IMG/VR virus record: IMGVR_UViG_3300029288_007102
Span: 96,001 to 160,000 of that record
Strand: one strand, 5' to 3'
DNA from: a virus
Lineage: Duplodnaviria > Caudoviricetes
Length of the DNA: 64,000 nt
The notes below the pieces were generated by a model. That model searched no databases. It was given only the letters and a program-made list of their open reading frames with translations, and was not told where the DNA came from. This document shows positions 10,416-60,987 of the stretch, piece after piece. Made by a program: the position numbers and the translations under genes. The first letter of the stretch is position 1. Each line of letters starts with the position of its first letter.

Positions 10416-10496
10416 CTTGAAGTGGTGGAATTGGCAGACATAGGGACTCTAGTCCCGGGCGGAAACGCCGTGTTGGTTCAAACCCAACCTTCAAGA
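10416..10496 (+). tRNA. Class II (Leu-like) tRNA or pseudo-tRNA with shortened anticodon loop
   Basis: Acceptor CTTGAAG/CTTCAAG, D region GTGGAATTGGCAGAC, arm GGGAC-TCTA-GTCCC, long variable arm GGCG-GAAA-CGCC, T arm GTTGG-TTCAAAC-CCAAC; no CCA. Confidence 0.75.
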
Positions 10497-16941: not shown

Positions 16942-17571
16942 ATGAAAAAACGTACTTATTTGATCCAGAGATTGTGTTTCCCGGTAAAGCGTCCAGATGG
17001 AAAGTTAAATAAGTTAATGGAAGTCCTCTCCTTTGGTGGGGGTTTTATTCACGGAGGGCTTACAGAGGATGCTATGGGATTGCTCAGACCTATTTTTAAT
17101 TTTGATTATATGGGCTCAGCAGAGTTTGAATGGGGTGCTGTGCCTAAATCTCTTAACGAAATTGCTCATAACAACGAACAATATGTGCGGGGAGAAATCT
17201 TAATAAAAAGTAAAAATACCCCGATTTACTATATTTGCCGAAAGGAAGATGAGACTGATGTTCAAGATCTTATCCAACAGTTAGCGGCAGATCAATATAG
17301 GAATTTGAAAGAAAGATCTATGGTAAAGGAAGTTGTAGATGGAGACTCTTACGCTAAAGACCGTATAGGAGGTTGGTTGGAGATAGATAACCATTTCTTT
17401 TTCTTTACAGACAAGATAATGTTTGAGAAAGTGGCAGAGTTATTCCAAATCAAGGAAACAGACAAGATAATGTTTGAGAAAGTGGCAGAGTTATTCCAAA
17501 TCAAGGAAACAGACAAGATAATGTTTGAGAAAGTGGCAGAGTTATTCCAAATCAAGGAAGAGGTAAAATGA
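16942..17571 (+). CDS. Hypothetical phage protein with triplicated C-terminus
   Basis: FDYMGSAEFEWG motif; TDKIMFEKVAELFQIKE x3. Confidence 0.7.
   Translation: MKKRTYLIQRLCFPVKRPDGKLNKLMEVLSFGGGFIHGGLTEDAMGLLRPIFNFDYMGSAEFEWGAVPKSLNEIAHNNEQYVRGEILIKSKNTPIYYICRKEDETDVQDLIQQLAADQYRNLKERSMVKEVVDGDSYAKDRIGGWLEIDNHFFFFTDKIMFEKVAELFQIKETDKIMFEKVAELFQIKETDKIMFEKVAELFQIKEEVK
17407..17559 (+). repeat. Perfect 51-bp tandem repeat x3
   Basis: ACAGACAAGATAATGTTTGAGAAAGTGGCAGAGTTATTCCAAATCAAGGAA starting at 17407, 17458 and 17509. Confidence 0.95.
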
Positions 17572-35389: not shown

Positions 35390-38300
35390 ATGGCTGGTAA
35401 ATTTTGTCATCTTCATGTCCATACAACATTTTCTTTGCTGGATGGCCTAGGTACTCCGGCGAAGCTTGCGGAAAAGGCAAAGCAGCTGGGGTTTACTGCC
35501 CTGGCACAAACAGATCACGGCAACATTGATGGGGCGATAAAATTTTATTCTGCGATGAAGAAGCAGGGTGTAAAGCCAATCATCGGGGTAGAGCTCTATG
35601 TGGTTGATAATCTATATGAAAAGCCGGAGAAAGAGAAACGGTATCATATGTTGGCCCTCTGCAAAAGCAACAACGGCTTTGTCAATCTTATGAAGATGTT
35701 GACCGTATCAAATCTTGACGGATTTTATAGGAGACCCAGGATTGATATGAAACTTCTAGATCTCTATGGGGGGGATCTGATAATTCTCACTGGGTGTAGT
35801 GAGGGGATACTGAAACGGCCAGATGGAATTGAATTGGCAAAAAAATTAAAAAAGAAATATGGTGATGATTTTTATCTAGAGATAATGCCTCATCATTATA
35901 AACCGCAAGTGGAAATGAATAATTTTTTATATAAACTTTCTCGGGAGCTTTCTATCCCTCTGGTTTCCACCAATGATAATCATTATCTAGACAAAGAGGG
36001 CTCGGTGGTCCAGGAAGTATTGCTTGCTATACAAAATAAAGTAGAATGGAAAGATCCTAATCGATGGAAATTTAGTTTTAATGGATTATATATGAGAACT
36101 TACGAAGAGATGTTGTTGGAGTACAAGTCTCAGGGGTCTGACATCCCTTCTAGTGTTATAACTGAATCTTTGGAACGGACAATGGAAATTGCGGACAAGT
36201 GTAATGTGTCTCTGGAGAAAGAGCGGGTGGATCTGCCGCTACCTCCGGCATTGAAGGGGCAAGAAGAAATTCAAGCGTTAATGGATTTGTGTATGGAAGG
36301 GTGGAGGGAAAAATTTCCCTTGATGTCGGGAGAGGAGGAAAAGGTTTATTATGGGAGGTTGGATGAAGAGCTTCAGGCTATTATTAATTTTGGCTATACT
36401 CGGTACTTTCTACTTGTATGGGATGTCCGGCGGTGGGCAAGAGAAAAAGGCATGTTCCTCGGCTGGGGTAGGGGATCGGCTCCAAGTTCTTTTGTCTGTT
36501 ATCTACTCGGAATTACAGGAGTGGACCCGATTAAGTATAAATTGTTGTTCAGTAGATTTATTGCCAAAGGGAGAATCGATCTTCCGGACATTGATCTTGA
36601 TTTCCCGGACACAAAGCGGGATCTAATTAAACAATACTTGCGGGATACTTATGGGGAGAACAATGTGGCAGCCATATCCACATTTATGTATCTGCATGGA
36701 AGATCGGCAATTAAAGATGTGGCCAGGGTCTTTGATGTGCCATTGGTAGAAGTGAATGAGTGTACGAAGGAAATAATCGACTACCCTCCCGGGGAAGATG
36801 AAGGCAGGTCAGAGATCCTGGAATCTTGTGCTCAGTTTGAGACTGTGAAAAAATTTAAGAAGAAGTATCCTCAGGTGATAAAGGTTGCGGCTGAACTTGA
36901 AGGGGAGATTAGGAATAAAGGGATGCATGCTGCCGGGATGGTTATTTCTTCTACTCCATTGAATGAGGGCATTAAATGTGTTCTGCATAAGATGAAAGGT
37001 GAATTAGTAGTTAACTGGGATAAACATGATTTGGACAATGTTGGTTTGATAAAGTTGGATGTTTTAGGATTGAATACGTTAAGTATGTTTGAAATCTGCC
37101 TTGACTTGATTAAGAAGAATCGTGGGGTTGATTTGGACTTATATTCTCTGAAGCCTAGAGACCAGAGAGTATTTGAGGAGTTTAGTAAAGGGGAAACGGA
37201 AGGGGTATTCCAATTCTTAAGCACTGGGCTGTCAAAATATTGTGAGCGGATAGGAATCTCTGATATAGAGGACTTGGTGGCCCTAAATGCTTTACATAGG
37301 CCGGGTGGGCTGAAAAGCGGAACCCTTGAGTCGTATGAGGCCCTCAAGAAAGGGAAAAAGCGTCCGATATATTTATGTGAAGAGTATAAGCAGATTACAG
37401 AGGAAACTTTTGGTTTGGTGATCTATCAGGAACAGATTATGCAGATTTTCCATAGACTGGCGGGCTTTACTTGGGAGCAGGCGGATTCAATTAGAAAGAT
37501 TGTGGCGAAATCCCAAGGGGAAATTGCGTTTAATAAATATAAGACTGAATTTGTTAATGGCTGTCTGGATAAGGGGACATTAAATAGGGAGCAGGCGGAT
37601 GCGTTGTTTAAAACTATGGCGTTCTCTGCGGGGTATAGTTTTAATCGGAGCCATGCTGTTGTCTACACTTTGCTTGGATATTTTTGTCAGTACCTAAAAG
37701 TTTATTACCCGGCAGAGTTTATATTGGCTTCACTGATGACTTCTGATAGCGATAAACAGATAGATTATATCCGGGAGGCACGTAGGCTGGGGATGAAAGT
37801 GGGGACTGTGGATATAAACCGATCTGGGTTGAATTGGGAAATATACGAGAATACTTTACTGCCGGGTTTTTTAATCATTAAAGGGATTGGTGACAAGGTG
37901 GCTTCCAATATTATGGAGTACCGGAATAAGATTGGCGTGTTTACAAGTTTTGATCATTTTCTGGGTTCAGTGGAGAAGAAAGCGGTCAATAAGAAGTCGG
38001 TGGAATCCTTGGTTAAGGCTGGTGCGTTTGATAAGATGGAGACGAACCGAAACATCTTGTTTGCCAAATTGAATGGAGATCCGATAGAGAAGGTGGATCA
38101 ACTTACGGAAGAGGAAAGGATGAAACAGTTGGATGAGGTTATGCCGTTTGAATTTAACCCTGACCCCTTATATATTTACCGCTCCCTCATCAAAGAGCTT
38201 GGGTCTGTGCTTTCGACTGTTAAGATAGTAGAAGCAACAAGGGCGGTAGATCGCCCTAGGTATTTTATAGGGAAGATGTTGAGTGTGGACTTCAGCCGTA

Positions 38301-39115
38301 AAGGGCAGGATGTAACTAGTGTCTATGGGGAGTTTGAAGATGAGAGTGGTTTGGCAAATCTTATATTCAGCTCTAAGGTTTATGGTCATTATAAAGAGAA
38401 GATAGAAAAACTGGCGGGTAAATATATCTTGGTGTTGGCGGGTTATTCTCCGACCAAAGGATCAATGTTGGCGGACAAGTTGTGGTTGTTGGAAGACATA
38501 GTGAATCTAAACTTTGGTAGTGATAAATTGATTTTGCCGTTGATCAAAAATACGGATTTAGATATTGATGGTTGTTCAATTTGTCGGGAGTGTAAACTTA
38601 GAAATAACGCCAGGTCGCCAGTAGGTGTGCAGAAAGGTAAGTGGAATGTTATGATTGTTGGTGAGGCACCAGGGGCAGAGGAGGATAGGTTGGGGGTCCC
38701 ATATATCGGGTCTGCCGGGAAATTATTGAATGATACTTTGGTGAAGTATGATTTGCGTAGAGAGCTTTTTTATGTTTCTAATTGTGTTAAATGTAAGCCG
38801 TTTAATGGTCCAAAAGATCCAAAGACTCCAAGTTTAGATTTGGTAAGGAAGTGTTCTGAGTTGTGGTTAGATAATGAAATTAGGGATATAGCTCCGAAGA
38901 TAATTTTTGCTACAGGGAACACCCCGTTGTATTTTTTTACGGGGAAGGAAACTGGAATCTCGGACAAGAATGCAACAATGCAATGGAATAAGGAATATAA
39001 TTGTTGGATAATTTTCTCAATACACCCGGCGGCTGTGTTATATCATAGGGAAAATCAGATAATGTTCGACCAGGCGGTAAAGATGTTGGCAGAGAAAATA
39101 GCTTATTTATTATAA
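35390..39115 (+). CDS. dnaE: DNA polymerase III alpha (family C) fused to C-terminal family-4 uracil-DNA glycosylase
   Basis: PHP HLHVHT.FSLLDG/TDHG, GRGSA, PDIDLDF, KLDVLGL, YSFNRSHA; C-terminal CRECKL..GEAPG..NCVKC..HPAA. Confidence 0.93.
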   Translation: MAGKFCHLHVHTTFSLLDGLGTPAKLAEKAKQLGFTALAQTDHGNIDGAIKFYSAMKKQGVKPIIGVELYVVDNLYEKPEKEKRYHMLALCKSNNGFVNLMKMLTVSNLDGFYRRPRIDMKLLDLYGGDLIILTGCSEGILKRPDGIELAKKLKKKYGDDFYLEIMPHHYKPQVEMNNFLYKLSRELSIPLVSTNDNHYLDKEGSVVQEVLLAIQNKVEWKDPNRWKFSFNGLYMRTYEEMLLEYKSQGSDIPSSVITESLERTMEIADKCNVSLEKERVDLPLPPALKGQEEIQALMDLCMEGWREKFPLMSGEEEKVYYGRLDEELQAIINFGYTRYFLLVWDVRRWAREKGMFLGWGRGSAPSSFVCYLLGITGVDPIKYKLLFSRFIAKGRIDLPDIDLDFPDTKRDLIKQYLRDTYGENNVAAISTFMYLHGRSAIKDVARVFDVPLVEVNECTKEIIDYPPGEDEGRSEILESCAQFETVKKFKKKYPQVIKVAAELEGEIRNKGMHAAGMVISSTPLNEGIKCVLHKMKGELVVNWDKHDLDNVGLIKLDVLGLNTLSMFEICLDLIKKNRGVDLDLYSLKPRDQRVFEEFSKGETEGVFQFLSTGLSKYCERIGISDIEDLVALNALHRPGGLKSGTLESYEALKKGKKRPIYLCEEYKQITEETFGLVIYQEQIMQIFHRLAGFTWEQADSIRKIVAKSQGEIAFNKYKTEFVNGCLDKGTLNREQADALFKTMAFSAGYSFNRSHAVVYTLLGYFCQYLKVYYPAEFILASLMTSDSDKQIDYIREARRLGMKVGTVDINRSGLNWEIYENTLLPGFLIIKGIGDKVASNIMEYRNKIGVFTSFDHFLGSVEKKAVNKKSVESLVKAGAFDKMETNRNILFAKLNGDPIEKVDQLTEEERMKQLDEVMPFEFNPDPLYIYRSLIKELGSVLSTVKIVEATRAVDRPRYFIGKMLSVDFSRKGQDVTSVYGEFEDESGLANLIFSSKVYGHYKEKIEKLAGKYILVLAGYSPTKGSMLADKLWLLEDIVNLNFGSDKLILPLIKNTDLDIDGCSICRECKLRNNARSPVGVQKGKWNVMIVGEAPGAEEDRLGVPYIGSAGKLLNDTLVKYDLRRELFYVSNCVKCKPFNGPKDPKTPSLDLVRKCSELWLDNEIRDIAPKIIFATGNTPLYFFTGKETGISDKNATMQWNKEYNCWIIFSIHPAAVLYHRENQIMFDQAVKMLAEKIAYLL

Positions 39116-54026: not shown

Positions 54027-54097
54027 CTGGGTGAGGTGTTGCGGTAGCATTTGCGGCCTGGGACCGTAAGGGGAAAGTTCGACTCTTTCCATCCAGA
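54027..54097 (+). tRNA. tRNA-Pro(TGG), non-canonical
   Basis: CTGGGTG/CATCCAG-A acceptor, TGCGG-CCTGGGA-CCGTA anticodon arm, GAAAG-TTCGACT-CTTTC T arm; C1:G72 and A73; no CCA. Confidence 0.8.
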
Positions 54098-55461: not shown

Positions 55462-57118
55462 TGCCATCATCAGAGCAGGTATCAGAAGGAAGAAAAGAGA
55501 AAATTGTTTTTGTCCGGGGGTTGCTTAAAGAAACTCCGAAGCTGAGGGCGACAGATATTTATGTCGCAGTTAAGACGAAATTTGGTAGTGGTATTGATGG
55601 AATAATGGTAAGAAAATTAAAACAGGAAGTGGATCCTAGTTATGTGGGGAAGAGGAGAAGGACGACAGGGAGAGTCTTCCCTGACGCTTTGGATGGGACA
55701 GGAAGATTGCCTGGAGAGATCGACCTTAAGAGGAGAGTTGATGTAAACACTATGTATTTTTCTTTTAGGAAGGTTGGGGCAACAGACAGCCAAGCTCGGG
55801 CTGCTGTATTAGATGCTACTGGAATAAGGCCGCTGGTCTTTGAATTTAAGAAGGAGCAGCTAGAGCAAGCCCAAGAGGATTTATCTAAATACAGACTTGC
55901 CTGTTTTAATCTTAACAAGAAGGGTGAGATCGTTCGGGTGAATCCGGTGAGGGTAACGGTCCAAGAGAAAAGGGGGCGGAAGAAGGAGAGTGAAAGGGCA
56001 CCCCAGCAGAATTAATTAAAAGTATCTTAGTAAAAGGAGAAGTGATGAGTGAAAGAGATTTTCGTTCTTTAGGGGAAGGCGATTTGCTTAAATGCATAAG
56101 GTTTATCCCAACGGGGAAAGATAAGGGGTATATCTTTTTAGATATAGAAGATAATATTGTTAAAATTTCTGAAACTGTTATTACGGCTTCTGTGCGAGTA
56201 GGGGATACCTTTGCGGTGTTGTCGATCAAAGAAGATGGTATGCCTTTATTTAAAAAGCTTTTTTCTGGGCAGACAGATAGGATAAAAAAGGTTTACCCAA
56301 AAAAAGAGTTGGCTATTACTTTGTATGCCTTTGCGGAGAATGAGGTTAACACGGCGGCCTATAAGCGTATGGATACAATAGACGAGGCGGTAGAGTTCTT
56401 TAAACAACTTTTGAATAAGCCGGAAATAACCATTATTAATGTTAGGAAGTTAAAACTAAAGGTTGGCGAAGAGAAGGGGATCTGATGCCAGAAGATGATG
56501 TTTTAGAGCGAGTAGCAAAGGTGTTGGCTAGGAAGAAATTACTTGAGGAGTATTCTAAGGCAATATTGTGTGTTAGAGAGACTTTTACCGAATTAGGTAA
56601 AATTTCAATGTCTGGTCAAGATTATATTAAAAGCTTTTCTAGCCTATTGGTGGTGTTAGGGCAGACGGCTGATCGGATGATTTATTTTTTAGGCAAACCT
56701 TTAGAGGAAGTACCGCTTATACAGTTTGATGGAGAATTGAAACGAATGGTGGATTTGAATGGGATTTTGGATGCGGCAAAGAAAAAGTTGAAATAATGAG
56801 GGGGGGGTATATGGAGGGGGAGAATGTAGACCAAAGGGGTTCTGTTCAAAAATATTTAGGGATAGATGATATACGGGCCAAGATAATACAAGATTTTATT
56901 ATAAAAGTATTTGGCGAGAATCTCTCTTTGGTTGAGATTTTTAAGAAGATAGAAGACAATAGTGAATTTGTAGACAAAGAGAAAAATTATGCATATTTCG
57001 CTAGCGGATCTTTTGTGACTTATAAGAGTTTAGTGCAAATGTTTAATGAGATGGCGTCAATGATGAAGATTGTTAACGAAGATTCTAATAGGCCATTAAA
57101 TTAAAGTAGGTGGTTTAG

Positions 57119-57457
57119 GTGGCAAAGAGAAGTAGAGAATTTATTCTTCCTGATATAGTTTGGGATAAATTGGATGAGACTAAGTCTGTTTTCTATTTTG
57201 AACCAGATGAATTGTATGAAAAGAAAAAACTTGCATCTCGCAGAATAAAAGAGTTGTTGGAGACTGATTTTTTTACAGGTCGGCAGAAAGATATTGTTCA
57301 TTTAATGGTATATGAAGGGAAGAGCCAGCGGGATATTGGGGGGATTTTGGGGGTGCCAAGAACTACAATAGAAAGGCAGATTTCGGCAATTATCCGTAAG
57401 CTTAAAAAATATTTTGACAAAATAAATCTTTTTGATCAGGAGATATTAGAGAAATAA
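57119..57457 (+). CDS. Sigma70 region-4-like HTH protein
   Basis: FTGRQKDIV.L..YEGKSQRDIG.ILGV.RTTI. Confidence 0.7.
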   Translation: MAKRSREFILPDIVWDKLDETKSVFYFEPDELYEKKKLASRRIKELLETDFFTGRQKDIVHLMVYEGKSQRDIGGILGVPRTTIERQISAIIRKLKKYFDKINLFDQEILEK

Positions 57458-57469
57458 TTCGGAGGGGAT

Positions 57470-57712
57470 ATGGGGATAAGGGCTTGTGTTGAGTGTGATT
57501 ATGTTAGCGATAACGATTTGTTGCCTAGTGATGGGAGATGTAACGAGTGTCATGGGACGGGTTGTGAGCAGGATGTTGTTGATGCTTTAGCGGAATCGTT
57601 CAGTGGTCAAAGCCAGGACTGTAAGAGATGTGGCGGCACTGGAGAATGCCCGGCATGTGAAGGAAGGGGTTTTATCGATACAGGAATTCTTGATGCAGAA
57701 GAGGGAGAGTAA
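57470..57712 (+). CDS. DnaJ-type zinc-finger small protein
   Basis: Repeated CxxCxGxG. Confidence 0.6.
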   Translation: MGIRACVECDYVSDNDLLPSDGRCNECHGTGCEQDVVDALAESFSGQSQDCKRCGGTGECPACEGRGFIDTGILDAEEGE

Positions 57713-57964
57713 AGAATTAAAAATAAGGAGGGAGATGAATAGGTGTGGAAAAAGATTGTTAGGGTGGTTTGCGGTTGGTTAGGGCATAGTGATTGGAAAT
57801 TTATTGAATTTGTTTATAGTGATAAGAAGATTAGAGGGTGGTTTGTTATTGTAGGAGAGAAACAGCGTTGTAGTGGATGTGGAACAGAGAGAATTAAGAA
57901 AACATAATTGGGGCAGGTCAGGTAAAGGGAGATAGGGTTTAATAATTTGTCTTCATATTTTTAC

Positions 57965-58360
57965 GGTACGGTCTGGTAAGGATAGGTGTGGAGAGGTCTG
58001 GTGGGGTAAGGTAGGGTTTTAATTTGACATTATTTCTTTTTACGGTAAGGAGTGGTGTGGCCGGGTACGGTGGGGCAAGGTAAGGTAGGGTGAGGTTTCA
58101 ATTTGAATTTATATTTTTAGGGTACGGTCCGGAGCGGTTGGGCAAGGCCGGGTGCGGTAAGGTCTGGTGTGGCAGGGTTCGGAACGGTACGGCATGGTGA
58201 GGTACGGTATGGTTGGGTTTGGTCAGGTGCGGTAGGGTTTTAATTCTTATGGTTTTATAAACTGGTGTGGTGAGGTGTGGTTAGGTTGGGTCGGATTATG
58301 TATGGTAGGGTCAGGTACGGCAAGGTGCGGTAAGGACAGGTTTGGTAGGGTAGGGGTTTT
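57965..58360 (+). repeat. Four arrays of phased GGY-NN pentamers (candidate guide RNAs)
   Basis: 57965-58019 (11 units), 58044-58098 (11), 58121-58240 (24), 58264-58353 (18); AT-rich linkers; shared GGTTT-AAT-like ends. Confidence 0.92.
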
Positions 58361-58387
58361 AAAATAAAATTGTGAGGAGGCAAGAAA

Positions 58388-58915
58388 GTGGAAAAGGTAA
58401 AAGTTATGATTAAGGGGACAGCACCATTATTGCAACACAGGTATCCGATGGAAGAGCACCCCGAGGAAAAAAGCAAGAAGGTTAAAAAGATTTATCCGGC
58501 TCAAGATGAATGTGAGAAAAGTCTTTATATGGATGATAAACTGAAGATCTATCAACCAGCGGAACACATCTATAGTTGTATTATAATGGCCGGGAAAAAC
58601 TTTTTATACGATAAACGGAAAATGTATGCCTCGGTATTAAAAGGGATGATCCTGGTAACCCCTTCGGCCATTTACCATAAGGATCAGAACTGGGTTATAG
58701 ATCGTAGGCCAGTGGTAATAAATAGGGCTAGGATCGTAAGAGCAAGGCCTAGGTTTGACAACTGGGAATTGGAGTTTGAAATTGAATATGATGAGGAAGT
58801 AATCAGTGAGTTCAAATTGAAAGAGATCGTAGACTTTGCCGGGAACAGAGTCGGCCTGGGGGACTTCCGCCCACTGTTTGGTCGGTTTATTGTTACTGAA
58901 TTCAAGAAGGCGTAG
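58388..58915 (+). CDS. Stand-alone RAMP/Cas7-like RNA-binding protein
   Basis: N-terminal V.V.I.G.APLLQH strand, IYQP..HI, R.RPRF..W.LEFEI, C-terminal Gly-rich loop AG.RVGLGDFRP.FGRF; GAGGAGG SD. Confidence 0.7.
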   Translation: MEKVKVMIKGTAPLLQHRYPMEEHPEEKSKKVKKIYPAQDECEKSLYMDDKLKIYQPAEHIYSCIIMAGKNFLYDKRKMYASVLKGMILVTPSAIYHKDQNWVIDRRPVVINRARIVRARPRFDNWELEFEIEYDEEVISEFKLKEIVDFAGNRVGLGDFRPLFGRFIVTEFKKA

Positions 58916-58920
58916 CATTA

Positions 58921-59442
58921 ATGGACAAGTTCCGTGCGGATTTAATTAAATTTATAGATCACTCTAATATGATAGAGGGGGTAGAGGACAAAGATGAGAT
59001 CCCCAACTCTATTGCCGCTTGGGTACACCTAAGTGGTAAATCCCAGTTGAGTAAGGCTGCGATATTATATGCCCATTATTGCATTCTCCAGGACCTTAAC
59101 CCTAGGATTGCCGGGAAGATTCGTACTTGTGATGTTGTTGTTGGTGGAAGAGTATGCCCTAAATATCATAAAGTTAAAGGGATGTTGTACCGCTGGATTA
59201 GGAAGTATGAGGATGGAGTGAAGACTGAGGAAGAGGCTGTCAAGGCTCATGTAGCATTTGAGAAGATTCATCCCTTCCAAGATGGTAATGGGCGGGTAGG
59301 TAGATTGTTGTGGTTGTGGATGAGAGAAAAGGCAGGATTGCCGTTTAAATATATTGATGTTGCACAGAGGTATGAATATTATGATTGGTTCAAAGAGAGG
59401 GGGACTGTAAGTGAGGAAGATGTATATAGATGGTCCAGCTGA
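58921..59442 (+). CDS. Fic-domain protein
   Basis: SNMIEG and canonical HPFQDGNGRVGR. Confidence 0.92.
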   Translation: MDKFRADLIKFIDHSNMIEGVEDKDEIPNSIAAWVHLSGKSQLSKAAILYAHYCILQDLNPRIAGKIRTCDVVVGGRVCPKYHKVKGMLYRWIRKYEDGVKTEEEAVKAHVAFEKIHPFQDGNGRVGRLLWLWMREKAGLPFKYIDVAQRYEYYDWFKERGTVSEEDVYRWSS

Positions 59443-60987
59443 TCAAGGTGAAGGGGTATATTCTTTAGTTTTGGATGATGGGGAATTGTTGGCCACCCAT
59501 TTTTGTAGCAGCTCGGGGTTTGCCAAAGGGGATTTAGAGGCAGAGAGGCCTGAGAGGCAAGATGAATGGAAGAAGAGATTTGGGGAATACGAGGTTCTTT
59601 TTATTGGCGAAGACGATATGACTAGAGATAAACTGATAGAATTGAATAAAAATATTGTGGCGAACCTTGCTTCTAAAGGGGTTAAGGATGAAGACGGCAG
59701 CCGAGATTCGGGAAAAATATAATAAACTTATAGAGAGAGATCTTGCCAGGTTGCAGAAGAGGTGTAAACATCCTACTAAAATTTGGTGTGATCAACAGTG
59801 GGCTCCAGCACATAGTACTGGCAGGGATGTTTTGGTTTGTGATTGTTGTGGTAAGATTTTGGAAGAACGCCAGGGGGGGTCTAGATAATGCCTGATATTA
59901 CTGTAGTAGGGGTAAAGAGAACAAATGGTAAAGAGGAAGAGGTTCAAATTGCTATATATTTGCGGCCAGGAACAACGAATATGACATTTGTTGTTGAGGG
60001 GTCTGAATACATCTTCCCCACTTGTGCGATTGTCGGTTTGATGGCGGGATATAAGAATGGGTAAATAAGGAGGGCTAGTGGCGATCATTAAGATTAAGGC
60101 TCCTATATGGAAAACCCCCCGCAGTGTGGGTGTTGCAGAGTTTAGGATGACGGAGCCAATAGTTAGGATTCAGATAGAATATAAAGAGAAGAGTGGGGAG
60201 AAGCTTTACCCTGGAATATATTCGATTAGCCGGGAAACGGCTATGACTTATCCAGTGCAGGTGCTGCCTCAAGGAATACGATTAAGGATTATCCCTATAG
60301 AGGATTTAGTGATGGTGAGGATAGATTAATGATAACTTGTTTAGGGAAGAAGTATGTTGAACGGCATCCAAAGAAAAAGTCTTGGAGTTATCATTTTACT
60401 TATATAGAGAGTGTTAATAAACCTAATGGGTCTTCTTTAACTAAAGAGTGTCATTATCATAGTAAGTCTTTCCTTGACTATCGGGAATGTTTGCGGGTGG
60501 CAACGATACATTATGTTGATATAAAGCAGATTATGGCACGCCAAAGGAAGGAAAAGTAGATGATAGATTTGATCTATTGTGGATATGAACACTATGATGA
60601 ATGTAAAAAGGAATTGCAGGTTGGTTTCCCTGATTGTGCAATTGAAGATACTTCTGATGATATTCATGAAGGAAGATTTCAGATAGAAGTTCCTGATGAG
60701 AGAAGGAAAGAGTTACTGATGTTTTTGTTGGAGAATGGATATTATAATATTTCGCTGAAGCTTCAATTGATGTCTTATGAGGAGAAGGGGGTTAAAGAAT
60801 TGGAAGGGTTGATGGAAGAGTTGGCGACGAAGAAGAAGGGGATAAATGAAGTGTAAATTTGAGGAGAAAAGGAATGATGTTGAGGATTGGTGTTCTATTC
60901 ATCATCAGTTCTTGGCGGGCACTACTTGTGTTGGTTGTCCGGATTATATAGAAGAAGAAGTTGTAAAAAAAATAGTGGGGAGGAAAA

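Follow-up and report, generated by a model that had tools for sequence, protein, structure and literature searches.

The locus described here consists of a tract of pentameric repeats, a stand-alone RAMP gene (vipr) that directly follows it, and a Fic/DOC gene downstream (Table 1). It lies within the window, by which we mean the whole 64,000-nt stretch of DNA analyzed, and belongs to a virus record of 183,208 bp that carries phage replication genes and thereby provides a viral context. Judged from its sequence, the putative cassette comprises four vrRNA arrays, corresponding to five or six guide modules, and a truncated remnant, all situated in the leader of a single vipr gene.

Table 1. Features of the vipr locus, with positions counted from the first letter of the window
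Feature	Position	Strand	Description
Truncated vrRNA remnant	57911..57945	+	GGGCA GGTCA GGTAA, then tail-like TAGGGTTTAAT; begins immediately 3' of the 54-aa ORF stop codon
vrRNA 1	57965..58019	+	11 units; NN AC CT AA TA GT GA CT GG AA AG, then GGTTT
vrRNA 2	58044..58098	+	11 units; NN AA GT GT CG AC GG AA AA AG GA, then GGTTT
vrRNA 3a	58121..58180	+	12 units; NN AC CC GC TG AA CG GC AA CT GT AG TC; in-phase fusion to 3b
vrRNA 3b	58181..58240	+	12 units; NN AC AC AT GA AC AT TG TT CA GC AG, then GGTTT
Block 4a	58264..58303	+	8 in-phase units, 2 degenerate (GATTA, TGTAT); NN GT GA GT TA TG CG TA AT
vrRNA 4b	58304..58358	+	11 units; NN AG CA AC AA GC AA CA TT AG AG, then GGGTT; in vipr leader
Ribosome-binding site	58374..58380	+	GAGGAGG, 7 nt before the GTG start; same layout in the closest relative, L005 (ATG start)
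vipr	58388..58915	+	175 aa, GTG start; stand-alone RAMP with a single RRM core, thumb hairpin at ~103-123, G-loop at 152-166 (AGNRVGLGDFRPLFG)
Fic/DOC gene	58921..59442	+	173 aa; motif HPFQDGNGRVGR; Pfam PF02661, E 2e-15; 5-nt gap after vipr

Several genes and elements surround the locus. Just upstream of the cassette, positions 57119-57457 encode a 112-aa product with little beyond the helix-turn-helix of sigma-70 region 4 (PHROG sigma-factor families; Pfam E 2e-7), too short for a complete sigma factor; its conservation in a VIPR-less relative marks it as a backbone gene. Between this gene and the arrays, two cysteine-rich ORFs of 80 and 54 aa occupy positions 57470-57907, the longer of which carries CxxCxGxG-type zinc-finger motifs resembling the DnaJ central domain and is absent from L005 and from another syntenic relative, L017. 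Elsewhere in the window, a DnaE-type Pol III alpha replicase (35390-39115; PHP, NTPase, finger and HhH regions) bears a C-terminal domain of the uracil-DNA glycosylase superfamily at residues 1086-1233, and close cultured relatives of the phage polymerase were not found. Three perfect tandem copies of a 51-nt unit (17407-17559) make up the one long-period repeat of this type in the whole 183-kb record. ARAGORN reported a normal tRNA-Pro(TGG) at 54027-54097 and, at 10416-10496, a tRNA-like gene with a two-base anticodon left undetermined. A near-identical copy of the genome, P0065, lies on a 188-kb contig.

The repeat tract was parsed into in-phase pentamers, with the sequence read for positions 57500-59300. 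The four arrays contain 65 pentamers, or 64 without the last unit, GGGTT, and 62 of these 64 start with GG, the exceptions being GATTA and TGTAT at 58294-58303. The third position is T in 51 units, C in 7 and A in 6 (n=64), so that GGA accounts for 9% of units; these counts exactly reproduce those given in the original prediction. The free variation that it had claimed for positions 4 and 5 is confirmed by the entropies of the five pentamer positions (0.11, 0.11, 1.03, 1.91 and 1.98 bits) and by the presence of all 16 dinucleotides at NN, and its description of the tract as non-coding agrees with the lack of any plus-strand ORF of at least 40 aa over 57911-58387. Indeed, a period of five means that the tract cannot be coding. 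Base composition predicts some 2e-8 occurrences per window of 11 GG units in one phase; such arrays are confined to this locus within the 183,208-bp genome, and shuffled genomes yield runs of just 5-7 units. VIPR arrays were defined as at least four tandem YNNGG/GGYNN units that are intergenic, flank vipr and run on its strand. The arrays found here have 11-24 units each and lie 30-430 nt upstream of vipr in the same orientation.

The arrays end in GGTRR-GGTTT-TAAT and are separated by AT-rich spacers of 22-24 nt, such as the 24-nt TAATTTGACATTATTTCTTTTTAC that follows vrRNA 1. The remnant shares both the ending GGGTTTAAT and an AT-rich spacer with the intact arrays. This ending is kept across the clade and, unlike the structured tail of Escherichia phage SUSP1, forms no stable fold, the folding of the tails being no better than that of shuffled sequences (z -0.9 to +1.0). 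Rfam has no match in 57000-59500, and hammerhead-interspersed arrays are therefore absent. Neither intrinsic terminators nor convincing sigma-70 promoters were found by scanning the spacers; from the flagged promoter candidate TTGGTA-17-TAAAAT, transcription would begin inside the ribosome-binding site. Positions 58121-58240 form 24 units and positions 58264-58358 form 19, each in a single phase throughout.

The reality of the ORF at 58388-58915 follows from 64 homologs that align from its first residue. Its sole clear match among PDB sequences is 36pp_D, 'SUSP1 Vipr protein' (phmmer E 1.8e-15, residues 5-169), and in the reciprocal tblastn search SUSP1 Vipr has a single match in the 183-kb genome, namely this ORF (E 2e-18). 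By tblastn, the product is about 30% identical to a hypothetical protein of SUSP1 and to 124 other phage records, mostly Felix-O1-like. The ORF falls into phrog_4652 (E 4.5e-28), to which no function is assigned there; Pfam contains no family for it, and no Cas family was matched in Pfam or PADLOC. The predicted fold resembles Csm3, Cmr4 and type VII Cas7, as is expected of a RAMP protein and as the fold comparison with Cas7-class proteins proposed beforehand had anticipated. The helical-bundle region (residues 22-34) is shorter than in SUSP1 Vipr and poorly modeled.

The residues that read GGY in SUSP1 Vipr are known from cryo-EM (H17, R138, D177, W178, R179 and E71; bioRxiv 10.64898/2026.04.26.720920,.720927). 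In the phmmer alignment, these correspond to H17, R120, D159, F160, R161 and E59, with the tryptophan replaced by phenylalanine. Among 34 homologs, R120, D159, R161 and P162 never vary, H17 hardly does and E59 is also strictly or almost strictly kept, while the aromatic position 160 varies. The SUSP1 pocket residues C173 and T175 become V155 and L157, and the alignment of K33 is not confident. Since the SUSP1 contact residues align with it and are conserved in the family, the glycine-rich loop GLGDFRPLFGRF singled out by the original prediction is the true G-loop. The proposal of a RAMP protein is thus supported by homology to SUSP1 Vipr, by the predicted fold and by the retention of most GGY-contact residues. 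The family is large: a clade profile searched against metagenomes at E <= 1e-3 retrieved 8,012 clusters at 50% identity, the nearest Atlas clusters of Vipr are 88-100% viral, and a pattern search of prokaryote genomes found no Vipr relatives. The roughly 8,000 clusters are several times the 2,664 sequences of the discovery paper.

[quoted passage not shown] Vipr is a stand-alone RAMP that polymerizes on GGY/NN vrRNAs with one protomer per repeat, sequesters GGY and offers NN to double-stranded DNA with one skipped base per unit (10.64898/2026.04.26.720920,.720927). The published outcome is the silencing of transcription of rival phages and satellites, and the pattern that defines vrRNAs is a conserved scaffold combined with variable guide positions (2026 preprints). 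The same literature proposes VIPR as the ancestor of CRISPR RAMPs. The discovery paper also mentions nuclease-type vap genes, with a vap gene being typical and its universality not stated. The likeness to VIPR that the original prediction had put forward is therefore borne out, as the class exists in the 2026 literature and the locus displays the features by which it can be recognized in sequence.

We consider it very likely that the locus is a minimal VIPR cassette on a 183-kb uncultivated phage and a member of the published class. A class 1 CRISPR-Cas effector is a poor description of the gene, which is accompanied by neither a repeat-spacer array nor partner cas genes; the fold alone is common. 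The earlier claim that cas1, cas2 and CRISPR arrays are lacking from the window was upheld and now extends to the whole 183-kb record: searches that recover both genes in control genomes found neither of them anywhere in the record, the window included, and TRF detected no CRISPR-like array over the same range. The hallmarks of type II VIPR (the SUSP1 / P. fulva clade), vap1 and a pseudoknotted vrRNA tail, are likewise not found at the locus.

To place the locus among its relatives, nine homolog loci (L001-L009) encoding Vipr proteins 33-72% identical to that of the window were compared with one array caller, which as a control recovers the published one upstream and three downstream vrRNAs of SUSP1. 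Co-oriented GGY-NN arrays flank the vipr homologs in six of the nine loci (L001-L005 and L008), the homolog in L007 is flanked by GGA-NN arrays, and no arrays were clearly seen by this caller in L006 and L009. Arrays thus adjoin vipr homologs in seven of nine loci, and the linkage on which the original prediction had staked its case is present. They accompany even homologs with identities as low as about 40%, always on the strand of the gene and before and/or after vipr; L004 carries a 48-unit run. As in the window, the arrays in relatives abut the vipr ribosome-binding site.

The closest relative, L005, encodes a Vipr 72% identical to that of the window and has syntenic flanks and the same four-array layout, which permits a position-wise comparison of guides. 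Over four arrays, conservation of GG amounts to 96-100%, against an identity of 21-50% at NN: the respective values are 22/22 and 9/22 for vrRNA 2, 23/24 and 5/24 for vrRNA 3a, 24/24 and 7/24 for vrRNA 3b, and 22/22 and 11/22 for vrRNA 4b. This pattern bears out the view that the tract is not a microsatellite, since the scaffold is conserved while NN varies, which slippage would not produce. Block 4a is the inverse of every other array, with NN identical at 16/16 positions and GG at 12/16. The units of the block whose GG has decayed are not the same in the window and in L005. The alignment further reveals that a 24-nt tail and spacer between 3a and 3b is present in L005 and deleted in the window, which identifies the 24-unit array as a fusion of two guides and suggests that guides can fuse by spacer loss.

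Two additional loci, L017 and L018, are syntenic with the window and contain neither arrays nor vipr. The genes held in common are the sigma-region-4-like gene (70%), the 54-aa zinc-ribbon gene (70%), Fic (60%) and DUF3307 (95%). Because these loci keep the flanks and lose both the arrays and vipr, the two components form one presence/absence cassette of about 1 kb. This suggests that arrays and vipr together constitute a self-contained mobile cassette, present or absent in otherwise syntenic phages.

These comparisons also weigh on a quite different account, in which the gene would be what is left of a CRISPR-Cas effector, an orphan Cas7, and its neighbor an unconnected G-rich microsatellite or G-quadruplex regulatory tract placed there by coincidence. 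The predicted fold does match Csm3, Cmr4 and type VII Cas7, and GG-N3 repeats could conceivably form two-tetrad G-quadruplexes. Against this stand the match of the sequence to Vipr rather than to any Cas family in Pfam or PADLOC, the recurrence of strand-matched arrays beside homologs as distant as about 40% identity, the joint loss of arrays and gene, and the retention of the scaffold amid NN variation that slippage would not give. We regard the orphan Cas7 as extremely unlikely, and a VIPR cassette remains the reading adopted here.

In L007, arrays made almost purely of GGA-NN (35 of 37 units; L007:3951-4040 and L007:7446-7540) lie around a Vipr homolog, P0038, that is 43% identical to that of the window. 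The P0038 G-loop, AGREGGLGD, has Gly where the window protein has V155 and SUSP1 has C173. L047, a relative of P0038 with 64% identity, has Val at that position together with GGT arrays. Going by these sequences, with one locus of each kind, the exchange of Gly for Val or Cys at position 155 may represent a position-3 specificity switch. At L008:4565-4897 and L009:4557-4844, a small nuclease of the Vsr/DUF559/MTES_1575 type follows, or slightly overlaps, a Vipr homolog of 33-40% identity. This nuclease fits the nuclease-type vap genes of the discovery paper.

The Fic gene adjoining vipr is of the short class-II-like kind; its N-terminal SNMIEG resembles a Fic inhibitory helix, and its active site, HPFQDGNGR, is intact. 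Among PADLOC defense models it matches SoFic and PDC-S04 (E 1e-16 to 1e-17). The corresponding motif of L005 reads HPHRDGNGR, and there the gene begins after a 2-nt gap. It could be asked whether Fic is a novel kind of accessory to VIPR, acting as an effector that AMPylates once the guide complex has recruited or licensed it: it occupies the exact slot of vap1 in SUSP1, its pairing with vipr is kept in L005, its catalytic motif is complete, and it fits defense-type models. However, the same gene (60% identity) is found within the same syntenic block in L017 and L018, which lack vipr and arrays, and Vipr homologs of 56-65% identity have other neighbors or none. The vipr-Fic pairing is seen in a single phage lineage. 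Neighbors vary among close Vipr homologs generally, and Fic is not beside those of 56-65% identity. Fic is not related to vap1, and no vap1 homolog is present in the 183-kb genome. Owing to its presence in the VIPR-less L017 and L018, Fic as a vap gene was largely rejected, and we judge an accessory role very improbable. Its identical syntenic place in loci without vipr and arrays indicates instead that Fic is probably a phage-backbone gene outside the VIPR system.

The mechanism proposed for the locus is carried over by homology from SUSP1, whose Vipr is about 30% identical, and all of its steps are to be read in that light. The arrays would be transcribed with vipr or from just upstream of it, and the short U/A-rich junctions (GGTTT-TAAT...) would serve as sites of cleavage or termination, with ends near GGTTTTAAT. 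One Vipr protomer would then bind each pentamer, with H17, R120, D159 and F160 gripping G1 and G2, and with Y3 seated in a pocket to which E59 and R161 contribute. The NN pairs left exposed would base-pair with double-stranded DNA of the form NNxNNx..., skipping one base per unit, and transcription would be blocked by the filament so bound. The targets would most likely be rival phages or satellites.

Targets were sought with the published 1-nt skip rule. Within the 183-kb phage genome, the best self-match was 16/20 with the 1-nt skip and 15/20 with control skips, so that none exceeded chance; the discovery paper likewise reports no self-target above chance for its own loci. The window guides had no match of at least 80% in the loci of relatives, and cross-targeting of all guides against all loci was not above controls. 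The original prediction had also envisaged gapped matches to the NN strings in phage or host genomes. This expectation did not hold for exact patterns, to which the searches of large collections were confined and which make for a weak negative: the 9-unit patterns of vr1, vr2, vr3a and vr3b had no match in IMG/VR, the ten-unit patterns of vr1 and vr3b none in the metagenome set, and the ten-unit pattern of vr2 none in 185,579 prokaryote species genomes. Shorter seeds of eight units produced four matches for 4a and 27 (about 13 independent) for 4b, which were rejected as targets because they fall in unrelated genes with mixed codon phase and do not extend beyond chance. Block 4a had no match of at least 14/16 in the phage genome or in the compared loci.

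That no rival-phage target emerged from any collection searched could be taken to mean that the natural job of such a VIPR-like ribonucleoprotein is the control of host genes or of phage timing rather than the silencing of rivals. The NN of block 4a is kept across phages whose Vipr proteins are 72% identical, as would be expected if the guide pointed at something conserved, for instance a host gene. Nevertheless, no site in the 183-kb record stands out beyond chance at 16/20 versus 15/20, the one guide compared with the 185,579 prokaryote species genomes has no exact match there, and the natural targets in the literature are satellites and prophages (2026 preprints). Host-gene or timing control is improbable in our assessment.

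A further possibility concerns the clade as a whole, which could represent a stripped-down form of VIPR, without an accessory and with nearly tail-less guides, that combines block 4a as a frozen guide or regulator with a position-3 code set by residue 155. Taken together, we consider this combination unlikely. As to its parts, the block at 58264-58303 may act either as a guide that the two phages have in common, directed at a conserved target, or in the regulation of the cassette itself. The G-loop residue 155 may set the reading of position 3, with V or C accompanying GGY and G occurring in the sole GGA relative; if this were true, mutually orthogonal VIPR codes would result.

Each well-documented natural VIPR locus helps to define which parts of the system are dispensable. 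The present one points to VIPR possibly working without a vap gene or a structured tail. It leaves the known picture of the mechanism unchanged, and its details are useful rather than surprising.

Among known systems, the locus is most instructively compared with the type II VIPR of Escherichia phage SUSP1 (PDB 36pp). Their Vipr proteins are homologous (about 30% identity; E 1.8e-15) and have in common the residues that contact GGY (H, R, D, aromatic, R and E), and both systems have 11-12-unit GGY-NN vrRNAs on the strand of the gene and upstream of vipr, in phages without cas genes. They differ in that vap1, which begins 3 nt after vipr in SUSP1, has no homolog in the whole genome here, and in the placement of the arrays: in the window every one of them precedes vipr, while in SUSP1 a single array precedes the gene and three follow it. 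Window tails measure about 24 nt (22-24) and are AT-rich and unstructured; those of SUSP1 are 50-60 nt long, structured and pseudoknotted. The window Vipr is 27 residues shorter, chiefly in the helical-bundle region, and 9% of the array units are GGA, even though purines are said to be kept out of the SUSP1 pocket. Long continuous ('staggered') vrRNA arrays are mentioned for some VIPR loci in the legend of fig. S18 (bioRxiv 10.64898/2026.04.26.720920/.720927). The in-phase runs at 58121-58240 (24 units) and 58264-58358 (19 units), each with more than one guide, resemble them as far as that legend describes them, although the 24-unit run of the window differs in having arisen through spacer loss between separate vrRNAs. 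Compared with the Cas7-class RAMPs Csm3, Cmr4 and type VII Cas7, identity is just 11-17%. Unlike Cas7 in class 1 CRISPR-Cas systems, the window protein occurs without CRISPR repeats, cas1, cas2, cas10 or a second RAMP, and its period is 5 nt with two exposed, in contrast to 6 nt with five exposed in the Cas7 class.
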